A stretch of DNA of 32,970 nt, taken from NCBI GenBank assembly GCA_045129715.1, contig JBGVKA010000070.1, forward strand, positions 1-32,970, read 5' to 3'. A model generated the notes under the pieces. The model did no database searches. It worked only from the letters and a program-made list of their open reading frames with translations, and had not been told where the DNA came from. A program made the translations under genes and the position numbers. Of the stretch, positions 1-29,525 are shown piece by piece (positions within the stretch are counted from its first letter, which is position 1; every line of letters begins with the position of its first letter). The DNA comes from Eubacteriales bacterium (GTDB lineage Bacteria > Bacillota > Clostridia > Oscillospirales > CAG-272).

Positions 1-160
1 CACTCCCGTGTCGTGAGCTGTTTGCTATTCGTCGGTCGGACACGACGAATGACGCAATATACCGCGAGCGGTATGCGCAAATCAGATTATTTAGGAACAA
101 TCCAATCCCTTTGCCAACTCGCGTGCGTGGGACTTCGCTTCGAAAAACGTTTATGTGCGC
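1..160 (+). other. Unidentified structured sequence, probably the 3' part of an inserted element or ncRNA (left end outside the window)
   Basis: Nested stems: 27-34/43-50 (perfect 8 bp), 59-64/69-74, 18-25/77-85 (1-nt bulge) and 4-17/118-132 (G-U rich on the + strand). Homology to the 28250 peptide gene stops abruptly at about 161. Confidence 0.4.
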
Positions 161-229
161 TCACCCGGAACCGAGACTCCTTGGTACGAGGAGAATGACG
201 GAAGCTGGGAGATCAGCGCAAAGGCGTAA
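161..229 (+). pseudogene. 3' half of a small peptide gene paralogous to 28250..28384 (SPGTETPWYEENDGSWEISAKA*), leader half missing or interrupted
   Basis: 16/22 aa identical to the C-terminus of the 28250 peptide, with synonymous changes (gga/ggt, gag/gaa, act/aca, atc/ata, agc/agt). The upstream frame does not encode the leader and has a TAG at 92-94. Confidence 0.7.
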
Positions 230-325
230 GGCTTTGCGCGGTGAGATCCATTTCTGTGAAATGGAATAGATCCAAACAGGTTTGGATGAAATCGCTATGC
301 GATGAAATCCCGCTTTGCAGGATTT
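216..325 (+). repeat. Five-hairpin array, copy A (paralog of 28371..28477)
   Basis: Stems at 216-239, 247-265, 270-287, 291-303 and about 305-325, joined by TGAGATC/TAGATC/TGAAATC linkers. Confidence 0.8.
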
Positions 326-335
326 TATGAAAACG

Positions 336-372
336 AAGGGCTTAGCCAAAGAGAATCGGCTAAGCCCTTTTT
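336..372 (+). terminator. Rho-independent terminator, possibly bidirectional
   Basis: AAGGGCTTAGCC (336-347) / GGCTAAGCCCTT (358-369) followed by a T-run. Confidence 0.85.
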
Positions 373-467
373 GATTTGTCATAATATACGGAAAAACTTT
401 TCCGCCCTTTTGTGTTGATTTTATATAGTAAAAGCAGTAACTTGTAAACAGCTTGAAAATGGTTCTT

Positions 468-6155: not shown

Positions 6156-7904
6156 TCAATCCTCGATAGCCGCCTTCTTCTTGTTGACCTTGCTGATTAT
6201 CTCCATATCGAACTTGGGCTTTCTCGTTTCGAACTCGAAAAGACCGTTGACCTCCTGCTCAACGTCGGTGAGCTGGGTGTAGCAGAAGCCGAAGATCTTG
6301 GGGTTATCAAGCATAGCGGTGGTGAGTCCGTCGTATCTTGCGTAGAACTCCTCGTAGCTTGAGGGAGCCTGACCGTAGCTCCAAGCCTTCTTGCTGTCGT
6401 TCTTCATAGCCGCGCTGAGATCAAGACCGATTCCTCCGTACTCGGAGATGAAGAAGGGCTCACCGCGCCAGGTCTGTCTGTCAAGGTATGCTCTCGCACC
6501 CACAAGCTTGTTTTCCTTGTAGATCGTGTCGTATCTCTCCTTGAAGGTCTCGGGGTTCTGATCGTAGTCGTGAAGATCGAAAATATCGGTGATAACGTGG
6601 AAGTTTCCGCTCGTATCGATGCAGGGACGGGTGGGATCGAGACGCTTGGTCTCCTCGTAAACTATACGGAGGAGGGAGTTGTCCTGACGCTTTTTCTGAT
6701 TACCGAAGTCCCAGGTCTCGTTGAAGGGGCACCAGCCTATGATGGAGGGATGGTTATAGTCGCGCTTTACGGAGCTGAGCCAGTCGGGAAGGAAGGTCGC
6801 AAGGTTTGCGATGTTGGAGTGATCAAGTCCCCAGTTTCCGTACTCTCCCCATACCATATATCCCATCTTATCGGCGTGATAGAGGAAGAGGGGCTCGAAT
6901 ACCTTCTCGTGAAGTCTTGCACCGTTGAAGCCTGCCGCAAGGGAGCACTCAATGTCCTTAACGAGAGCCGCCTCGGAGGGCGCGGTCCAAACGCCGTCGT
7001 GATAATATCCCTGATCGAGAACGAGTCTCTGAAATACGCTTCTGCCGTTGAGAAGGAACTTGCCGTCCTTCATCTCAATGTGACGCAGACCAAAGTAGCT
7101 CGTTACAACGTCCTCACCAAAGGTGAACTTAACGTCGTAGAGATTGCCCTGTCCGAGATCCCAAAGGTGAGTCTCGGAGAGCTGTACCTCAAGGTTTCCG
7201 GTAACGGAAAGATTGTTTTTCTTAGCCTCGCCGACCTTCTTGCCCTCGTAGAATACCTCTGCGGTAAGGTCGCCCGAGCCAACGAGCTCAAGGCTTACGG
7301 AAACGGAGGAGTTGTTAGCGTCGGGAGTGATGCGAGCGTACTTGATATAGCTTTCGGGAACGGACTCGTACCAAACGGTCTGCCAAATACCCGTGGTTCT
7401 CGTATAGCAGCAGCCAACGGAATAGAATTTCTTGGACTGCTTTCCGAGTCCCTGCTTGGTGGAGAGGGTGTCGTCAAAGCAACGGATGGTTATATCGTTT
7501 TCGCCTGCGACGAGAAGCTTCGTAATATCGTATTCGAAGGAAACGAAGCCGCCAACGTGGGGAAGACCTGCCTCAACGCCGTTTACGTAAACGGTGGTCT
7601 CAAAGTCTGCCGCACCGACGTGGAAGATTATTCTTCTTCCCTTAAGCTCCTCCTCGGTGAAGGTGAGAACCTTCTTGTACCATACCTGAAGCATAAAGTC
7701 CTTTTCTCCAACTCCCGAGAGCGAGCTTTCGGGACAGAAGGGAACGTTTATCTTAAGGGGGAGCTCCTTAGCCTTATGAAGATTTCTGTCAAATCCGCTT
7801 GCGGACTTGTCTATTTCAAACATCCATTCGCCGTTAAGATTGACGAAGGATTCTCTTTTCCATTGGGGATTCGGATGCTCGGGACGGGGGATTGTGTTAA
7901 ACAT
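6156..7904 (-). CDS. Glycoside hydrolase family 2 (beta-galactosidase/glucuronidase-like)
   Basis: PRPEHPNPQ, NLNGEW, INVPFCPES, TGIWQTVW, LVLDQGY, NHPSIIGWCPFNETW (acid/base Glu), SEYGG (nucleophile) and CYTQLTDVEQE. Confidence 0.92.
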   Translation of the reverse strand: MFNTIPRPEHPNPQWKRESFVNLNGEWMFEIDKSASGFDRNLHKAKELPLKINVPFCPESSLSGVGEKDFMLQVWYKKVLTFTEEELKGRRIIFHVGAADFETTVYVNGVEAGLPHVGGFVSFEYDITKLLVAGENDITIRCFDDTLSTKQGLGKQSKKFYSVGCCYTRTTGIWQTVWYESVPESYIKYARITPDANNSSVSVSLELVGSGDLTAEVFYEGKKVGEAKKNNLSVTGNLEVQLSETHLWDLGQGNLYDVKFTFGEDVVTSYFGLRHIEMKDGKFLLNGRSVFQRLVLDQGYYHDGVWTAPSEAALVKDIECSLAAGFNGARLHEKVFEPLFLYHADKMGYMVWGEYGNWGLDHSNIANLATFLPDWLSSVKRDYNHPSIIGWCPFNETWDFGNQKKRQDNSLLRIVYEETKRLDPTRPCIDTSGNFHVITDIFDLHDYDQNPETFKERYDTIYKENKLVGARAYLDRQTWRGEPFFISEYGGIGLDLSAAMKNDSKKAWSYGQAPSSYEEFYARYDGLTTAMLDNPKIFGFCYTQLTDVEQEVNGLFEFETRKPKFDMEIISKVNKKKAAIED

Positions 7905-14871: not shown

Positions 14872-15120
14872 AATAAAAATTCCCTCGGGGGCACTTGCCT
14901 CCAAGGGTGCATAAAATTATACACGGTTCCACCTTGAATTTAACTCACGGATAAAATCCAATCTCTTAACGCGAGACAGACGGCACGGCTTTATGCAAAA
15001 TGCGGTTCGCCGGCGGCTCGGGAGTGGTCTTCATAAAACGGACTGCAAGGAAGCTTCCAGCAAACGCTCCCCTCTCTGTATACCCTTCGTTTTACTACTC
15101 TTTCCGTCGTAGCCTTTGGT
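14872..15120 (-). promoter_or_regulatory. T-box riboswitch (Thr)
   Basis: AGAGA and GCTG stem-I motifs, specifier GAAG-ACC (15028-15026, a Thr codon), T-box AAGGTGGAACCGTG (14935-14922) and terminator CCCTTGGAGGCA..CCCCCGAGGG with a U-rich tail. Confidence 0.93.
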
Positions 15121-15126
15121 GATGAT

Positions 15127-15155
15127 ATTATATCATCAAAGCGTCTTTTTGTCAA
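15127..15155 (-). promoter_or_regulatory. Consensus sigma-A promoter of thrS
   Basis: TTGACA-17bp-TATAAT with extended TG. Confidence 0.85.
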
Positions 15156-15275
15156 TACGTAAAGCTTAAAAGCTTAAAAGTTTTTTGTAAGCGGCAGGGG
15201 AGGCGAGCTTTTGCCTGCATTTTTGGTGCGCGTGAGATATTTTTTCTCGCGCGGTGACATTTTTGGACTTCAAGA

Positions 15276-22637: not shown

Positions 22638-25600
22638 ATGAAAAGTCGAATTAACGCATTAACTAAGATCACGTTGATCGTGCTTCTCGTTGCTCTTGTC
22701 GTTGCCTCCGTAGCGTTTTCTACGGGCGCGGCTTCCGAGATAGGAGAGAGCGCCTCGGAGGGTAGAACCTTCAAGGATATAACAAAGCTTGACCAAAGGC
22801 TTGAGCTTACAAGACCTCTTGAGGATATCCCACTCACATGGGAGGCAGAGATCAAGGTTGAAGGAACCTCAGACGAGCTTTGCAAGGGTACGCTTTTTGG
22901 TCAGTACGGCGGAAACGGAAAGAACGTTTTCTTCAATTTTGAAATATTCACGGTAAACGGTGTTCCTTCACCTGCTTTGGTATACGTGAATGACTATACG
23001 CCAAAGAGTCAGAACTCGGTCGTGTTCGACAAGAACTCAACTCCTATCAAGGATGCGGACGGAAAAACCAATACCATTGCCGATCACATAGGTGAGTGGG
23101 TACACGTTGCAATCACCACGACCTTGGTCGACGCTTCAACCAATACGTATGATTTTAATTGCTACATAAACGGAAAAAAGGCATACGAAACCGTTCAGAG
23201 AAAGAACGTGATATTCACCGAGTCAAACCTCGAAACAGCACAGAACTCCAACAGATTCGCTCTTGGATCTAATGCTGTTCCCACCGATCCCGTAGAGTTC
23301 CCCGGCTCGATCAGAAAATTAGCCCTTTACGGTAACTCTCTCACCGAAGAGGAGGTGGCTTCGTCTTATAAAAACGGCGTAAACAAAAACGGAACCGATC
23401 TTATCGCATACTACGATATGAGCACGGTTGACGATCTTTGGTACGAGGAGGATCTCTCGGGCAACGGTTATCACCTTGCAAGAGCAGATAAGGTATACAA
23501 CGTCAACAGCGAGGGAAGAGGCGGCTTTGACAAGGCCAACAGACTCACTCTTACGAAAAAGCTCACCGAGACACCTCTTACCGTGGAGGCTGTTATTAAG
23601 ACAACGTCAACGGGATGCACTGTTTTCGGAAATACCACTACTTCCACCGTCGGATGCCTTAATTTTGAGATATACAAATCCCAGCCTGCGCTTTGCTTCC
23701 CCATAGATGCTACGGGAAAGAGAGGCTCGGTGATCTTCTCAACTCCCCTTGAGGGAGTGCAGGGCTTCACTCCCAACGCGAACGAGAAGGACGGTTTTAC
23801 TTATATTGCTATCACCGCTACGCCTACCGGTGTTGAAAACACCTATAATTTTGATTGCTACGTAAACGGTGTTAAGGCTTATGATACGATCACCAATAAG
23901 GTTGCTTATCTCGACGCGGAGCTTATTCAGGCGGCAGGTAATCTTGTTATCGGCGGAAACGGAGGAAGCTCTCAATTCTCAGGAACCATCAGAAGCGTAA
24001 ATCTTTACAACCGCCCGTTGACAGCGGCGGAGATCAGAGCTTCGTATATCTTCGAGAGCACCTTTGACGGTATGATAGCGGGTTATGATATGTCCGATTA
24101 CTCGCATATCAGAAATCCTCAGTTTGAGGCTGATATTTCCGGTAACGGATACCACGCGCAGAAGGCTAATAATACCAACACCGGCAAATGGTTTGACACT
24201 ACCTCGGGCGGTGACAAGGTTGCTGCTTCCGCGGATGCCGCAAAGCCGTATTTCGTTTATAATACGATCGAGCAAATGCCGAGAACCTACGAAATGACCG
24301 TATACGTTAACGGAAACGCCAGTAACGAGGTCTTTTCGAGCACCGTATTCGGCAACTATCCCAATGCGGCTAATTCCTGCATAAACCTTGAGTTCTTCAA
24401 CAAGGGAATCGCGCTCTGTCTTTGGGATTACGACGCAAGTGGAAAGCTTGTGAAGGATACCGTTCAATTCACTTATAAGCCTACGGCTAATCAGTGGCTT
24501 CACCTCGTAGTTACCAACGAAGTCGCCGCGGGCAAGAGCATATATAAGCTTTACATCAACGGCGAGCACGTTGACACCGTAACGAGTAAGCCGAACGTTC
24601 ACGACATAATCGATTCGCAGACCGCAACTCGTTTGTTCTCTCTTGGCGGAAGCGGTGCAAAGAGCTTCAACGGAGGTCTTATAGACTTTGCTCTTTATTC
24701 CGATCCTCTTACCGCTGAGGAGGTAATGGACTCCTTCAGAAACGGTGTTAACAAGTATGATGAGTCTCTTATAGCTTACTACGATCTTAAGACCGTAGCC
24801 GGTGACGACTTCATTCAGGATCTTTCCGGTAACAATCATCACGCATCGAGAAACGATTACACTCTCGCAGAGGGCGGAAGATGGTTCAATATCGACGAGG
24901 AAAGACTTGCGGTATCTAAAAATTACAAAGATGCTCCTCTTACGATTTCGGCAGAGATCTATATCCCCGAAAGCGTAAATAAGGCAAATACCATTTTCGG
25001 TAATTTTTACGCGAGAGACTACATCAACTTTGAGATCACCTCTAATAATAAGGCGGCTCTCGTTATCAACGAGCTCCCCGAAAATCTTATAACCTCGAAC
25101 AGCACTGCGTATATCCACTCTATCGTCTTCAACGAGGAGATCCCTCGCGGAGAATGGACCACCCTTACCGTAGTATACGATAAGTATTGCACCACCGACG
25201 ACAGATACGCTCTTTACGTTGACGGCGTTAAGTCCACCGCAGGATACACCTTCGGCGGTATTCACAACGATAAGAACAGTGCGGGAAACAAGATAGTTTC
25301 TCACACCTTCGAGCTTGATATGGAATGGATCCAGAGAGCTATTCCTTTCACTCTCGGAAGAGACGCAACCAAGTGCTTCCAGGGTAAGATAAAGAATCTC
25401 GCTCTTTACTCCGAGCCTCTTTCGGAAGAGCAGATCGCAAGCATTACGGCAAACGGCGTTGATATGACAAGCCGCGAGCTCTTTGCTTACTACAACCTCG
25501 ATAACCCCGAGAACACCAAGACCTTCGTTAAGGACGAGACCGGCAACGGCTACGACTTTACCTACAGATTCTTCGAGAGCGAGAACGAGGAGACCTACGA

Positions 25601-28214
25601 TTACTCCTTCGCATTCCTCGGAGACACTCAGTTCCTCATCTATAAGGACATTAACGAGGGTACCACTAAGTATACCAAGGCTATTTACGATTGGCTTATC
25701 GAGAACAAAGACGAGAAGAAGCTTCAGTACGTATTTGGTCTCGGTGATATCAGTGACAAGGATATGATAGCCGAATACGAATACGCGGCTTATCTCTACA
25801 GCACTCTCGGTGATGCCGGAATCAAATACGCGGCTATCCCCGGTAACCACGACGGACAGACCGCATACGTCAAGTACGATTCCGTATTCTCTCAGGATGC
25901 ATACCTTACTGACGGTGTCGTCAGCTACAAGGATGGAAGCGTTGCTAACTACTACAAGACCTTCGAGGTTGGCGAGTACAAGTATATGGTAGTAGTTCTT
26001 GAGTTCGGTGCTCCCGATGCGGTTCTTGAGTGGGCAAACAATGCCGTTGCATCGAATCCCGACAGACAGGTTATCGTTCTTACTCACGGTTACATAGGCT
26101 ACGACGGAGGCTTCCTCAGTGAGAAGGAGCTTCACGCACCTAACGCAAACAACGGTCTTAACAGCGGTGAGGAGATCTGGACAAAGTTTGTTTCTCAGCA
26201 CTCCAACATCATAATCTCCGCTTGCGGACATATCGATCCCTATAACATCAAGCAGAGATCTGACGTAGGCGTGAACGGAAATACCGTTCAGCAGTTCCTT
26301 ATCGATCCTCAGGCTCTCGATAAGACCTGGAGCTACGACACCGGTATGGTGGCTATGTTCTACTTCTCGGACGGCGGTAAGGACGTAAGAGTTGAGTACG
26401 TTTCCACGACCAAGACTCAGAGAGCAAAAGAAACCGATCCCAACGCTAAGGACGTTCTCTTCGGCGAGGCTAATCAGTTCAGCTTTACTCTCGATATCCC
26501 CACCGCAGAGAAGGTAGTTACCGCTTACGGTGAGCTCCCCTATATCAATACTAACCTTGATCTTAACGCAGCGGTTCTCTTTAAGAATAACGCAGACGGA
26601 ACCTATTCCTTCGTTGGCGGTTATGCGAGCGTTGACCTTGCGTTTGCGGAGGTTATAAAGGACGCGAGCGGAAGCTTTACCGTTCTTCTTCGCGACAACG
26701 CGAGAATGTCCTCTAAGGTATCCTTCAATAATTTCAAAGGCGATCTTACCCTCGATCTTGGCGGATACGAGCTTAAGGTTGACCAGAGCGGCAATTATCT
26801 CTTCGATATTTACAGAAATAACGCGACCTCGATAAATGCGACCTACACCGTTAAAAACGGTAGCATTACTAAGGCTCACGGAAGAGGTCTCAACTGCATT
26901 AACTACGGCACCTCTATTGCCGCAGACAGCAGCATCTCCTTCACCTACGATAACGTAACTTTCAAGTCGTTGACCTCATCCCTCGTTAACAACGTTATCT
27001 TCTGCAACTGGGAAAACGGTTACTCAAGTGCTATCACCAACAAGATGTACGTTAACGCAGTATTCAACGACTGTACGTTCGATCTTAAGAACTCTATAAA
27101 CGGCGCGCTTATGCTTTCTATGACCAACACCTCAAACGGCGGTAACGTGGTGGTTTACGACGTTACGGTCAACGGCGGTGTTATAGCGGTTAAGGACGGT
27201 GCGGACATTGAAGGTCTTTACACTCAGGACGCACTTGATAAGATCACCTTCGGCAAGACCGAGGACGGAAATTATACCGCTCTCGTAGCTCCTTACGGCT
27301 CGACCGAGCCCACCGTAGTTTATAACGGACTTGAGTTCGTTAAGGTATCCGAGAATGCAGACGAGGTAATTTACAGACTTAGACCCGTCGAGGTTGCAGA
27401 TGTAAATTATGCGCCCAAGATGAGCATAACTCTCGCTACCGAGTTCGTTATGAACGTATACGTTCCCGTAAATTATACACAAAAGTTTACATTTAACGGT
27501 GTAACCTACGATTCCGCAAACTCCTTCGGCGGTAAGGTCACCACTCTTGATGACGGATATAGCTACTACGTTATCTCCGTAGCTCTCGGCTCCTCCGAGG
27601 CTGCAAGCGAGCTCAAGCTCGTAGCTACCGTTAACGCTGAGGACACCGTTGCAACCGCTACCTTCACCTTCTCCATTCCTAAGTACGCAAAGAAGGTCAT
27701 CGCAGGCGGCAGCGAGGTGGAGAAGACTCTTGTCAAGGACGTTCTTGCTTACGTAAGAGCGGCTTACGAGTACTTCACCGAGCACAACGATAAGGCAGAG
27801 ATAGAGAGAGTTGTTGCTCTCGTTAACTCCATTATCGGAGAGGATCACGTAAGCGTTCCCACCTCGAGCGGTGTTACCGCAAAGGATAACGCAGGCATCG
27901 TTACCGACGTAACTCTTAACCTCAGCGCAAATCCCACCGTTCGCTTCTACGTGACCGATACTGCTCTTGAGTTCTATGCGAACGGCAAGAAGCTTAATAC
28001 CGTAGCATCCGCTGACGGCGGCTACGTTGAGCTTGACGTATACGCATATGCACTCGCTGAAACCATCACCTTTGGTGAGGGCGGAAGCTACCACGTCTCC
28101 GATTTCGTAAACGGTGCTAAGGGTACCGATCACGAGGCGGTTGTGAATGCGTTCGTTAAGTACGTTGAGGCGGCAGCCGATTACAGAAATGCTGTAATCG
28201 GAGGTAATAAGTAA
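22638..28214 (+). CDS. Giant secreted protein (1858 aa): signal peptide, 4 LamG/concanavalin-A-like domains, calcineurin-like metallophosphoesterase, about 290-aa unknown module, tandem C-terminal domain
   Basis: Signal peptide ending ..STGA/A. Four repeats with WxHV, YINGx, FxGxI..LALY..PLTxEEI and D.SGNGYH. GDTQ/GLGDISD/GNHD/THGY/GHID phosphoesterase motifs at about 25600-26490. Confidence 0.85.
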   Translation: MKSRINALTKITLIVLLVALVVASVAFSTGAASEIGESASEGRTFKDITKLDQRLELTRPLEDIPLTWEAEIKVEGTSDELCKGTLFGQYGGNGKNVFFNFEIFTVNGVPSPALVYVNDYTPKSQNSVVFDKNSTPIKDADGKTNTIADHIGEWVHVAITTTLVDASTNTYDFNCYINGKKAYETVQRKNVIFTESNLETAQNSNRFALGSNAVPTDPVEFPGSIRKLALYGNSLTEEEVASSYKNGVNKNGTDLIAYYDMSTVDDLWYEEDLSGNGYHLARADKVYNVNSEGRGGFDKANRLTLTKKLTETPLTVEAVIKTTSTGCTVFGNTTTSTVGCLNFEIYKSQPALCFPIDATGKRGSVIFSTPLEGVQGFTPNANEKDGFTYIAITATPTGVENTYNFDCYVNGVKAYDTITNKVAYLDAELIQAAGNLVIGGNGGSSQFSGTIRSVNLYNRPLTAAEIRASYIFESTFDGMIAGYDMSDYSHIRNPQFEADISGNGYHAQKANNTNTGKWFDTTSGGDKVAASADAAKPYFVYNTIEQMPRTYEMTVYVNGNASNEVFSSTVFGNYPNAANSCINLEFFNKGIALCLWDYDASGKLVKDTVQFTYKPTANQWLHLVVTNEVAAGKSIYKLYINGEHVDTVTSKPNVHDIIDSQTATRLFSLGGSGAKSFNGGLIDFALYSDPLTAEEVMDSFRNGVNKYDESLIAYYDLKTVAGDDFIQDLSGNNHHASRNDYTLAEGGRWFNIDEERLAVSKNYKDAPLTISAEIYIPESVNKANTIFGNFYARDYINFEITSNNKAALVINELPENLITSNSTAYIHSIVFNEEIPRGEWTTLTVVYDKYCTTDDRYALYVDGVKSTAGYTFGGIHNDKNSAGNKIVSHTFELDMEWIQRAIPFTLGRDATKCFQGKIKNLALYSEPLSEEQIASITANGVDMTSRELFAYYNLDNPENTKTFVKDETGNGYDFTYRFFESENEETYDYSFAFLGDTQFLIYKDINEGTTKYTKAIYDWLIENKDEKKLQYVFGLGDISDKDMIAEYEYAAYLYSTLGDAGIKYAAIPGNHDGQTAYVKYDSVFSQDAYLTDGVVSYKDGSVANYYKTFEVGEYKYMVVVLEFGAPDAVLEWANNAVASNPDRQVIVLTHGYIGYDGGFLSEKELHAPNANNGLNSGEEIWTKFVSQHSNIIISACGHIDPYNIKQRSDVGVNGNTVQQFLIDPQALDKTWSYDTGMVAMFYFSDGGKDVRVEYVSTTKTQRAKETDPNAKDVLFGEANQFSFTLDIPTAEKVVTAYGELPYINTNLDLNAAVLFKNNADGTYSFVGGYASVDLAFAEVIKDASGSFTVLLRDNARMSSKVSFNNFKGDLTLDLGGYELKVDQSGNYLFDIYRNNATSINATYTVKNGSITKAHGRGLNCINYGTSIAADSSISFTYDNVTFKSLTSSLVNNVIFCNWENGYSSAITNKMYVNAVFNDCTFDLKNSINGALMLSMTNTSNGGNVVVYDVTVNGGVIAVKDGADIEGLYTQDALDKITFGKTEDGNYTALVAPYGSTEPTVVYNGLEFVKVSENADEVIYRLRPVEVADVNYAPKMSITLATEFVMNVYVPVNYTQKFTFNGVTYDSANSFGGKVTTLDDGYSYYVISVALGSSEAASELKLVATVNAEDTVATATFTFSIPKYAKKVIAGGSEVEKTLVKDVLAYVRAAYEYFTEHNDKAEIERVVALVNSIIGEDHVSVPTSSGVTAKDNAGIVTDVTLNLSANPTVRFYVTDTALEFYANGKKLNTVASADGGYVELDVYAYALAETITFGEGGSYHVSDFVNGAKGTDHEAVVNAFVKYVEAAADYRNAVIGGNK

Positions 28215-28241
28215 GAGTGAATAGTGAAGAAGTGAGGTTAG
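28204..28241 (+). repeat. Heptamer-type repeat shared with the tRNA trailer (875-899, minus strand)
   Basis: 28204-28228 matches the reverse complement of 875-899 at 24/25 nt. Confidence 0.7.
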
Positions 28242-28249
28242 AAAAGAAA

Positions 28250-28384
28250 ATGAAGAATTATATTAACCCCGAAATTGAGGTTGTAGAGCTTAAGATAAAC
28301 GATATTCTTACTACATCATCAGGTACCGAAACACCTCCTTACGAGGAGACAGACGGAAGCTGGGAGATAAGTGTAAATCCTTGA
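28250..28384 (+). CDS. 44-aa acidic peptide with a lasso/RiPP-like leader (MKNYINPEIEVVELKINDILTTSSGTETPPYEETDGSWEISVNP), not in the ORF track
   Basis: ATG 35 nt after the giant gene stop, GAGGT RBS-like site, and a paralogous fragment at 161-229 with synonymous changes. Confidence 0.8.
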   Translation: MKNYINPEIEVVELKINDILTTSSGTETPPYEETDGSWEISVNP

Positions 28385-28477
28385 TCGGATTTACACAATG
28401 AAATCCATTTCGGTGAAATGGAATAAATCCACTAAGGTGGATGAAATCGCTATGCGATTAAATCCGACTTTGTCGGA
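28371..28477 (+). repeat. Five-hairpin array, copy B
   Basis: Stems at 28371-28396, 28404-28422, 28427-28442, 28446-28458 and 28463-28477, joined by TGAAATC/TAAATC linkers. Confidence 0.8.
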
Positions 28478-28485
28478 CGAAAAGC

Positions 28486-28523
28486 AAAAGACTTAGCCGG
28501 AAAAATACGGCTAAGTCTTTTTT
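28486..28523 (+). terminator. Rho-independent terminator closing the giant gene/peptide unit
   Basis: AAAAGACTTAGCCG / CGGCTAAGTCTTTT followed by a T-run. Homologous to 336-372. Confidence 0.88.
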
Positions 28524-28600
28524 GCGTGGTTTTAAATTATATAAAAGCGGTCTGTGTGACGGTGGCTTTGATGGGTAGTGTTTGATAAAAACACAGATTT

Positions 28601-28709: not shown

Positions 28710-29525
28710 TCACTCAAAAAAGCTCGTTTTGGGCTGCTCCTGCGGACCTGCAAAGAACTTTTTTCTGTACTCCGAAGGTGAGAATCCCATAATGCTTCTG
28801 AATTGCCTTAAGAACGTTCGTTCGCTTCCGAATCCGCATTCGTAACCGATCTCGGTCGTGGTTTTGTCACTTGAGGTGATAAGATATCTTGCGCGCTCGA
28901 TCCTGAGGCTTGCAAGAATGGTACAGAAATTGAGTCCGTAAAGCTTTTGTATACAGTGGGAGAGATAATTCGCACTGTATCCGAGTGCACCTGCCACGCT
29001 ATCGAGTGTGATAGGCTCGGTAAAGTGCTCGTTCATATAGGTTATCACCTTAGAAACTACACTCGTTCCGCCCATACTTTTATGTAAAGGCGTCGTGGAA
29101 ACGTAGTCGTTAAGAGCAAGATAGAGAAATCCCTTTACGTTGTAAAGGGAAAGGTCCTCACCGTTAAGTATCTTCTCGCGGAATACCGCGAGAGTTGACT
29201 CGCTCGGCTTGAACACCGCGCGCTCACCGACGTTGCCCTCGTGCTTCTTCATAAAGCTGACCGTCGTTGCAGGGGAGAAGAGGTACATTGCGAGCTTGTT
29301 TACGCCTTTGGAGGACATATTGTGGGTTTGGTAGGGGAAGATGAATGCCGCCTCGCCCGCCCTTATGTATTCCTGCTTGTCGTCAACAGTGATACGCATC
29401 TCGCCCTCAAGCATAAATATGAGCTCTGCGTATTGGTGGATATGGTTCGATACCTTATACACCTTGTTATATATCTGATGCTGAAAGGCGGCTTTTGAGC
29501 CGAAATTGTTTCCCATTATACGCAT
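28710..29525 (-). CDS. AraC family transcriptional regulator, no. 2 (paralog of no. 1)
   Basis: HIHQYAEL cupin, LGYSANYLSH, LRIERARYL and IGYECGFGSERTFLRQFRSIMGFSPSEY. GGAGG RBS. Confidence 0.95.
   Translation of the reverse strand: MRIMGNNFGSKAAFQHQIYNKVYKVSNHIHQYAELIFMLEGEMRITVDDKQEYIRAGEAAFIFPYQTHNMSSKGVNKLAMYLFSPATTVSFMKKHEGNVGERAVFKPSESTLAVFREKILNGEDLSLYNVKGFLYLALNDYVSTTPLHKSMGGTSVVSKVITYMNEHFTEPITLDSVAGALGYSANYLSHCIQKLYGLNFCTILASLRIERARYLITSSDKTTTEIGYECGFGSERTFLRQFRSIMGFSPSEYRKKFFAGPQEQPKTSFFE

Follow-up and report, generated by a model that had tools for sequence, protein, structure and literature searches.

The stretch of DNA considered here, called the window throughout, is the sequence of 32,970 nucleotides of contig JBGVKA010000070.1 (positions 1 to 32,970, forward strand; assembly GCA_045129715.1) from a Eubacteriales bacterium that GTDB places in Oscillospirales, CAG-272. 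The genome that holds it (G000 in the following) has 2.04 Mb in 277 contigs and is 83% complete. The window carries two copies of a hairpin array, copy A and copy B, each of which consists on its own of five stem-loops, with a long G+C-rich hairpin and then a T run behind them. Copy B closes a locus in which a giant open reading frame (ORF) precedes the gene of a 44-aa peptide, and copy A follows a fragment of such a gene. We describe this array and its relation to the Rfam family Gut-1, and we weigh what it may do. The features concerned, all on the + strand, are these:

1..160, + strand, spacer X, a repeated and strongly folding segment (blastn, minimum free energy)
95..229, + strand, start-less C-terminal fragment of the peptide gene, ending in ..SPGTETPWYEENDGSWEISAKA and the stop codon (translation, family listing)
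216..239, + strand, hairpin H1 of copy A, GCGCAAAG / CTTTGCGC, with the stop codon TAA (227-229) in the loop (fold, sequence)
240..326, + strand, array core of copy A, H2-H5 (fold; R1 and Gut-1 matches)
335..375, + strand, terminator-like hairpin of copy A, GGGCTTAGCC / GGCTAAGCCC, with T run (fold, scan)
22638..28214, + strand, giant ORF of 1858 aa upstream of peptide gene B (ORF list; Pfam)
28250..28384, + strand, complete 44-aa peptide gene of copy B (translation)
28371..28396, + strand, hairpin H1 of copy B, GTGTAAATCC / GGATTTACAC, with the loop TTGATC that contains the stop codon TGA (28382-28384) (fold, sequence)
28397..28477, + strand, array core of copy B, H2-H5 (fold; R1 and Gut-1 matches)
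28486..28527, + strand, intrinsic-terminator-like hairpin of copy B, GACTTAGCCG / CGGCTAAGTC (fold, terminator scan)

A repeat search of the window recovers the two copies as three two-copy direct-repeat families about 28,155 nt apart: 161-222 with 28316-28377 (79%), 230-281 with 28387-28438 (79%), and 283-322 with 28438-28477 (88%). Aligned pairwise, copies A and B have a mean column identity of 80%. The fold of copy A (210-375) has -67.2 kcal/mol against -42.8 +/- 4.2 for shuffles (z -5.78), and that of copy B (28365-28527) has -66.8 kcal/mol against -30.7 +/- 3.4 (z -10.49); in neither case was any of 200 dinucleotide shuffles as low. The stems of copy A are H1 216-223/232-239, H2 247-254/258-265, H3 270-276/281-287, H4 291-295/299-303, H5 304-326 and the terminator 335-347/358-370. 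Those of copy B are H1 28371-28380/28387-28396, H2 28404-28411/28415-28422, H3 28427-28432/28437-28442, H4 28445-28450/28454-28459 and H5 28463-28468/28472-28477, after which the terminator follows. An initial annotation of the window had proposed five stems and a terminator in the same order in both copies, and the folds confirm this; the arms it quoted for H1, H3, H4 and the terminator are all present exactly as given. H4 is the same in both copies, while H1, H3, H5 and the terminator differ between them yet still pair, through compensating changes. The arms of H1, for example, are GCGCAAAG/CTTTGCGC in copy A and GTGTAAAT/ATTTACAC in copy B, and those of H3 are ATCCAAA/TTTGGAT and ATCCAC/GTGGAT, respectively.

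The stop codon indeed sits inside the H1 loop of both copies, and in copy B the last four codons of the peptide gene together with the stop codon form the 5' arm and loop of this hairpin. The same annotation spoke of the peptide stop codon in both copies. A complete peptide gene precedes only copy B; ahead of copy A the frame contains a stop (92-94) but lacks an ATG, which leaves only the start-less fragment. The terminator hairpin of copy B lies between an A run and a T run and is thus two-directional in form (the scan flags the - strand, and the T run of the + strand was read from the sequence). That of copy A also ends most peptide-gene 3' regions of G000, as seen in a listing of 28 downstream regions. 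Both window copies are 'solo' arrays, that is, they have one orientation.

The unit from which the array is built has a stem of 4-8 bp, a loop of 3-4 nt beginning with U and, before the stem, a conserved single-stranded linker, which is (A/U)GAAAUC here and GUGAAAU in canonical Gut-1. In copy B the linkers before H2-H5 are, in order, AUGAAAUC, AUAAAUC, UGAAAUC and UUAAAUC, of the type (A/U)(G/A)AAAUC; copy A has GAGAUC, AUAGAUC and GAAAUC. We compared 36 arrays from 13 genomes (10 from G000 and 26 from 12 relatives) in a MAFFT alignment that was not fitted to any structure, and the linker columns proved to be invariant or at least 90% conserved. With a four-hairpin structure laid on this alignment, 92.5% of 890 cells are paired compared with 80.4% in shuffles (0 of 500 reach the observed value), 16 of 26 pairs are changed on both sides (110 cells), and slid controls pair in 33-53%; kinship and paralogy of the sequences inflate shuffle-based statistics of this kind. 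A second alignment of 106 matches, which leans towards the structure as it was fitted to the model, gave 95.4% paired cells against 74.1% in shuffles; here both sides had changed in 21 of 24 pairs (448 cells). Conservation of the structure through compensating changes, as claimed from the two copies, thus holds in the larger set. The loops are strand-specific: among 302 hairpins C(TTC)G occurs 57 times, C(TTT)G 19 times and C(TAC)G 14 times, and their reverse complements 0-2 times. A tetraloop signature of RNA (UNCG or GNRA) was considered and rejected, with only 4 UNCG loops among these hairpins, most of which have U-first triloops.

Does this array belong to a known family? At the Rfam gathering thresholds the whole window yields only a tRNA gene (998-1068, - strand, 62.2 bits), which, some 630 nt downstream from copy A and on the other strand, is not adjacent to the array. 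The relation to Gut-1 (RF01706) surfaced only with E-value thresholds and via relatives, and the comparison with Rfam that had been proposed for the array therefore did reveal a known relative. Copy B matches RF01706 at 28420-28488 with 28.8 bits (full 77-position model, cmscan) and copy A at 270-323 with 27.2 bits. Both are below the curated gathering score of 50 bits, so the window copies are filed as a divergent variant and not as members. In G000 as a whole the family has 19 matches at E<=0.01, three of them over the cut-off, on contigs C269 (69.3 bits), C197 (56.2) and C29 (51.1). Arrays of relatives reach 47.1, 45.4 and 43.9 bits, with E down to 1.8e-8, and where they form inverted composites (see below) the right halves match on the opposite strand. 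The covariance model R1, built from the 36 aligned arrays, scores 85.6 bits at the same C197 array that passes with Gut-1, and because this array is high with both, the two models describe one continuum.

The Gut-1 consensus given by cmscan has three hairpins joined by GUGAAAU, and the seed alignment in the supplement of Weinberg et al. (2010) agrees with it. The window arrays likewise contain at least three adjacent hairpins with conserved (G)UGAAAU-type linkers and share with Gut-1 the consecutive short hairpins, the conserved purine-rich single-stranded linker with UGAAAU, and gut-bacterial hosts. They differ in having four or five hairpins instead of three, and linkers that read AUGAAAUC, UAAAUC or GAGAUC in place of GUGAAAU. 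They also lie within a 3' untranslated region (UTR), with H1 over the stop codon, whereas the discovery paper (PMC2864571, Genome Biol 11:R31), where it treats Gut-1, rates it 'Y' as an RNA, 'n' as cis-regulatory and 'n' as a riboswitch, with the remark 'Human gut only', and regards a cis-regulatory role as improbable and expression separate from mRNAs as most likely. The main text of that paper says nothing on multi-copy dispersal, inverted composites or tRNA linkage of Gut-1. No functional study of Gut-1 was found in the literature searched, in which the mentions are the discovery paper and a structure-prediction benchmark of 2026. Taken with the distribution described next, these data make it very probable that the window arrays are a divergent AUGAAAUC-linker variant of the Gut-1 hairpin array, that the Gut-1 motif is a generic multi-copy 3'-end repeat found across the order, and that the peptide system does not include the array among its components.

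The initial annotation had called for a covariance model and a count of genome copies. With R1, G000 has 23 matches at E<=0.01, 17 of them above 50 bits; the window copies score 85.2 bits (28389-28486) and 81.5 bits (232-331). The conservation between two loci on which the annotation was founded is real, but these two are not the only copies. Eight matches are linked to peptide genes. The other 15, on contigs C97, C197, C233, C100, C55, C260, C29, C245, C269 and C117, follow unrelated ORFs, the variable first hairpin lying at or just past the stop codon. The layout in which H1 folds over the stop is thus seen at unrelated genes too (C260, and locus L039 of a relative). Beyond G000, R1 has matches in 68 of 100 genomes of the genus (1-30 in each) and in 48 of 150 of the order, across 20 of the 30 families sampled; near-identical arrays, of up to 103.6 bits, occur in different families of the order. 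When copy B was compared by blastn with 40 relatives, only its H3-H5 part matched, and not beside a peptide gene. The arrays of relatives were found right after the intrinsic terminators of tRNA genes, after the end of an rpsI-like gene and after other ORFs.

The peptide family has a much narrower distribution. By tblastn it is present in 8 of the 100 other genus genomes, being expanded in G070 (18 matches) and G108 (11 matches), and the array in 68 of 100. That the array belongs to the peptide system, as had been supposed, is thus not supported: many copies in unrelated contexts, which the annotation itself had named as the mark of a generic repeat, are what we find. A regular-expression search for peptide genes in G070, G108 and G098 found one true case, and a peptide gene in G070 has no array after it. 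Within G000, 28 ORFs carry the family motif YEE.DG.WE, and tblastn gives 32 matches. Their 3' regions are of several kinds. A hairpin array follows the gene on C22, C35, C70 (twice), C120, C147 and C252, and variants of it on C52, C53 and C164; in at least 11 family ORFs the 3' region is of another kind and has no array, being either A-rich and free of these hairpins or made up of a spacer and a start-less half copy of the peptide gene. Given this variety, the array is no fixed part of the peptide gene.

The peptide genes form a system in their own right. A two-gene module, a giant ORF and then the gene of an acidic 44-aa peptide, is present about 20 times in this 2-Mb genome (22638-28384 of the window and 18 other contigs). 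Of the 23 full peptide genes, 19 have a giant ORF (213 to 2779 aa) that ends 13-157 nt before them, and the remaining four are at contig ends. These 19 giant ORFs, many of them cut by contig ends, all match one another by blastp, and most share a C-terminal module of about 110 aa; the one in the window has Pfam matches to Laminin_G_3 (four stretches) and Metallophos. The peptide consensus is MKKYMNPEIEVVEI..DVLTTSPGTETPWYEE.DGSWEI..., and its reading frame is under protein-level selection, since serine codons swap between AGC and TCT among the copies of the gene. The peptide of copy B has no match in Pfam or NCBIfam, and its 24 homologues in a collection of 5.8 billion proteins include none with an informative name. 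The other genes of the window are those of an ordinary chromosome (ThrRS, Pth, Mfd and glycosidases).

Start-less halves of the peptide gene, set behind a complete gene and a spacer that is about 150-170 nt long and folds strongly, recur in window 1-229 and on C129, C266, C22, C183 and C120, a layout that recalls orphan C-terminal cassettes left by recombination. Spacer X of the window (minimum free energy -47.7 kcal/mol) matches the end of C75 by blastn with 100% identity over 141 nt and C129 with 94% over 149 nt. It joins the complete peptide gene on C75, by way of this identical overlap with the start of the window, to the start-less fragment before copy A. A different spacer, Y, is found on C266, C22, C183 and C120; both spacers recur on several contigs and have no Rfam match. 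For spacer X and the fragment (window 1-229) this holds at E<=1 in a search of 1-1872, where the nearest match is that to Gut-1 at 270-323. In addition, direct repeats of AGTGAA / GTGAAA (complement TTCAC) that form no hairpins occur upstream of peptide gene B (28215-28240), in the array-less peptide 3' regions of C45, C99, C171, C183, C191 and C203, and after tRNA-Trp at L103 in G002, a genome without arrays. These repeats may be degenerate forms of the Gut-1 linker or its precursors.

The position of the arrays relative to genes was evaluated for 64 strong matches, using crude ORF calls. Upstream, the nearest feature has the orientation of the array in 44, the opposite one in 12, and is absent in 8; downstream, 52 matches have a feature, which is convergent in 31 and co-oriented in 21. 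In relatives, a co-oriented tRNA gene (Val, Trp, Ala, Ser, Leu or Gln, by ARAGORN) is located 26-38 nt upstream of 11 arrays. In G000 a terminator-like hairpin follows the array in 11 of 16 cases and precedes it in none of 16. We rely for terminators on these G000 counts and on upstream counts, as the downstream counts for composites are unreliable: their right-half hairpins, followed by ATTTCAT, were scored as terminators at about 60 nt. In neither window copy did the scan find a promoter-like site in the interval from the peptide stop codon to the array. Downstream of copy B lies a convergent gene of the AraC family (28710-29525, - strand).

Most arrays of relatives are in fact the left half of an inverted composite of about 190 nt, whose right half reads GAUUUCAU on the same strand; in G000 such composites are found on C97, C197, C245 and C269. 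The linkers of the two halves are exact reverse complements, ATGAAATC on the left and GATTTCAT after the right-half hairpins. The centre of the composite is complementary to the first unit, and RNAalifold predicts a long-range helix of 10 bp between the first linker with the first 5' arm and this centre. The helix covaries at two positions (UA 18 / CG 14; CG 15 / UA 11) and competes with the local first hairpin. Several loci hint that the arrays spread as cassettes. At L037 an 11-nt repeat of the 3' end of tRNA-Ala stands on both sides of a 235-nt unit made of terminator and composite, and tRNA 3'-end repeats near arrays were seen in 4 of 15 tRNA loci. At the tRNA-Trp locus G019, G070 and G053 carry arrays of the ATGAAATC type and G004 one of the canonical GTGAAAT type; G002 has only hairpin-less TTCAC...GTGAA repeats there, and no clean empty site was seen.

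Two further arrangements concern whole 3' ends. Downstream of tRNA-Trp (L035, L085, L087, L032), a block of terminator, composite array and the gene of a four-helix-bundle protein is near-identical in G019 and G070 although the tRNA-Trp genes and their promoters differ, which suggests horizontal movement or an element integrated at the tRNA. After many arrays of G000 (C100, C55, C29, C117, C52, C164, C233 and C260) there is a shared 3' module, GAAATGTCGCTTTCAGGTTCGCGACATAG..AATCATTAGGAATATTAAA and then the terminator GGCTTGACCGATGAAAATCGACCAAGCC, so that whole 3'-end cassettes, extending beyond the hairpins, are common to unrelated genes. A second repeat family of this genome looks like a classical repetitive extragenic palindrome (REP): GTAG and the palindrome GGGAGGAT-ATC-ATCCTCCC are repeated in tandem with a period of 62-63 nt on C117 (about 14900-15166), C231 (about 450-640) and C260 (about 6190-6611), often adjoining Gut-1-type arrays. 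The array itself was also considered as a CRISPR (clustered regularly interspaced short palindromic repeats) and rejected: its units abut without spacers, and a k-mer scan of G000 for periodic repeats of 50-90 nt found only the GTAG-type palindromes, and hence no CRISPR-like array that the units could mimic.

If the array is a generic repeat, then we can ask: At which level, DNA or RNA, does it act? The annotation had left open a non-coding RNA of the 3' UTR, a protein-binding array, or an element like REP and the bacterial interspersed mosaic element (BIME). The last of these fits best, as a generic repeat. Enterobacterial REP/BIME elements stabilise the 3' end of the upstream mRNA, and REPs close to stop codons have been reported to affect translation; their architecture is a GTAG motif with a hairpin, and their partner, in enterobacteria as in pseudomonads, is the REP-associated tyrosine transposase (RAYT). 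The array resembles them in its many dispersed intergenic palindromic copies at gene 3' ends, in the short conserved motif beside an imperfect palindrome, in the clustering of units (inverted in the composites, but of one orientation in both window copies), and in a position suited to stabilising the upstream mRNA. A purely DNA-level repeat of the REP/BIME kind, or one like a miniature inverted-repeat transposable element, would be selfish; hairpins and linker would be the recognition or cleavage structure of a single-strand transposase or recombinase acting in trans, and effects on RNA would be incidental. The dispersal in unrelated contexts, the inverted composites with their reverse-complementary linkers and a centre complementary to the first unit, the likeness of the 5' motif plus variable palindrome to GTAG-plus-hairpin REPs, the 11-nt direct repeat around one 235-nt unit, and the near-identical arrays in different families all argue for it. 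Against this stand the linker GAAAU(C) instead of GTAG, units placed head-to-tail within a half and not alternating, and 1-30 copies per genome, low for REPs, which have hundreds. The RAYT partner that the annotation had suggested looking for did not appear either: PF01797 (Y1 transposases of the RAYT/IS200 type) has no match in G000 (83% complete), and it is present in 30 of the 100 other genus genomes, where arrays are found in 21 of the 30 with the gene and in 47 of the 70 without it, a tally that takes both searches to cover the same 100 genomes, as the genome labels suggest. The high-copy genomes G053, G107, G078 and G096 lack the Y1 gene, arrays are kept at the same locus after tRNA-Trp in G019, G070 and G053, and at gene ends there is a strong bias for the sense orientation. 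We consider this explanation rather unlikely, although it is the most serious of the alternatives.

Two other explanations give the array a role of its own in transcription. As a stand-alone small RNA gene (Rfam type 'Gene; sRNA') it would produce its own RNA, whose UGAAAU linkers titrate an RNA-binding protein, as sponges of the CsrB/RsmZ type do. Linkers that recur unchanged between the hairpins do resemble multiple binding sites, the ratings of Gut-1 quoted above point the same way, and many arrays of relatives follow a terminator, outside the upstream transcript. In the window copies, however, H1 overlaps the coding end and no promoter-like site separates the peptide stop from the array, and the lack of a terminator before any of the 16 arrays of G000 favours a 3' UTR there; an independent small RNA gene is decidedly improbable. 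Read on the other strand, hairpins followed by AUUUCAU could be a row of weak terminators that shields the upstream gene from a convergent neighbour, composites being two-way insulators. H2 is indeed called terminator-like on the - strand (28422-28404), and convergent neighbours are frequent, the AraC-family gene behind copy B among them. However, the U tract has three U's only, a strong two-directional terminator already lies between array and neighbour, and the downstream feature is often co-oriented (21 of 52), all of which makes such a barrier very improbable. A 3' UTR dedicated to regulating the peptide system is the least probable of all and is already contradicted by the distribution. 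It could appeal to the 8 of 23 matches of G000 that follow peptide genes and to an H1 made from the last peptide codons in two versions, SVNP and SAKA. Array-less family members, the 15 other matches in G000 and hundreds in relatives that follow other genes, the H1-over-stop layout at unrelated genes and the rarity of the peptide in the genus all contradict it.

Most likely, then, the array is a generic REP/BIME-like 3'-end cassette acting as a transcribed 3'-UTR structure. The window arrays lie on the sense strand, with a stop codon before them and an intrinsic terminator behind, and so would be expected to form the transcribed 3' UTR of the operon of giant protein and peptide. They share with stem-loop stabilisers of 3' UTRs and with intrinsic terminators the stable, G+C-containing hairpins between stop codon and terminator, the last of which, with its T run, is an ordinary terminator. 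One hairpin would do for that purpose, whereas here we see a modular array with invariant linkers and covarying stems, at unrelated genes across the order. A role at the RNA level, at the 3' end, is the explanation to which we lean, but tentatively, judging it about as likely to be wrong as right.

Several observations count against it. It is from position that we infer the transcription of the arrays, and a terminator-like hairpin with a T run stands before 21 of 48 arrays of relatives, so that these would be transcribed only by read-through. Upstream features are anti-oriented in 12 of 56 cases, of which at least two (L035, L006) are artefacts of the crude ORF calls. Inverted composites are easier to understand at the DNA level. 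Pairs of G-U type exceed A-C 119 to 36 overall, but 35 to 29 without the two positions at the stem base, which leaves no strand signal. Moreover, the vocabulary of stems is limited and reused in different slots (TCGC 45 times, TCCACC 28, TCCTGC 20, TCCGAC 17, TCTGCC 12, and others, TCCAAAC among them). The 'compensatory change' seen between copies A and B is thus partly an exchange of whole units and not covariation in place, as in H3 (CCAAAC in A, CCAC in B) and H5 (CCCGC in A, CCGAC in B); the inflation of the pairing statistics by kinship adds to this.

Under the 3'-end role a row of stable hairpins would block decay in the 3'-to-5' direction and so shield or process the 3' end of the upstream transcript, much as REP/BIME elements do. 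The invariant single-stranded linkers might dock a protein, and H1 would fold over the stop codon. The cassettes may have spread by duplication and recombination of 3' ends and not by a RAYT transposase, since fragments of gene 3' ends travel with the arrays; copy A, preceded by spacer X and a start-less peptide half whose complete gene is on C75, gives a hint of this. A bolder version, which we think unlikely as a whole, would make Gut-1-type arrays RAYT-independent, order-wide mobile 3'-end cassettes that carry the 3' end of a host gene (a tRNA or the C-terminal half of the peptide) and insert at gene ends by homology. The UGAAAU-linked hairpins would then dock an RNA- or single-stranded-DNA-binding protein that controls the finishing of tRNA and mRNA 3' ends, and the first unit, able to pair either with its own 3' arm or with the centre of the composite, would act as a switch.

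For the window itself, the array is no sign of a special regulatory RNA for the peptide system. The less ordinary thing there is that system, with its roughly 20 giant secreted-type proteins, each followed by the gene of a 44-aa peptide. For the family, the analysis supplies a host group and a genomic behaviour, and no new mechanism is demonstrated. Since 2010 Rfam has listed Gut-1 as a small RNA, 'human gut only', without host or function. Together with its AUGAAAUC-linker variant it can now be placed in a definite group of uncultured gut Clostridia, where it behaves as a modular multi-copy 3'-end repeat, often after tRNA genes and often as an inverted composite. Experiments on Gut-1 would thus be better aimed at the protection or processing of 3' ends and at a linker-binding protein than at a single trans-acting small RNA.

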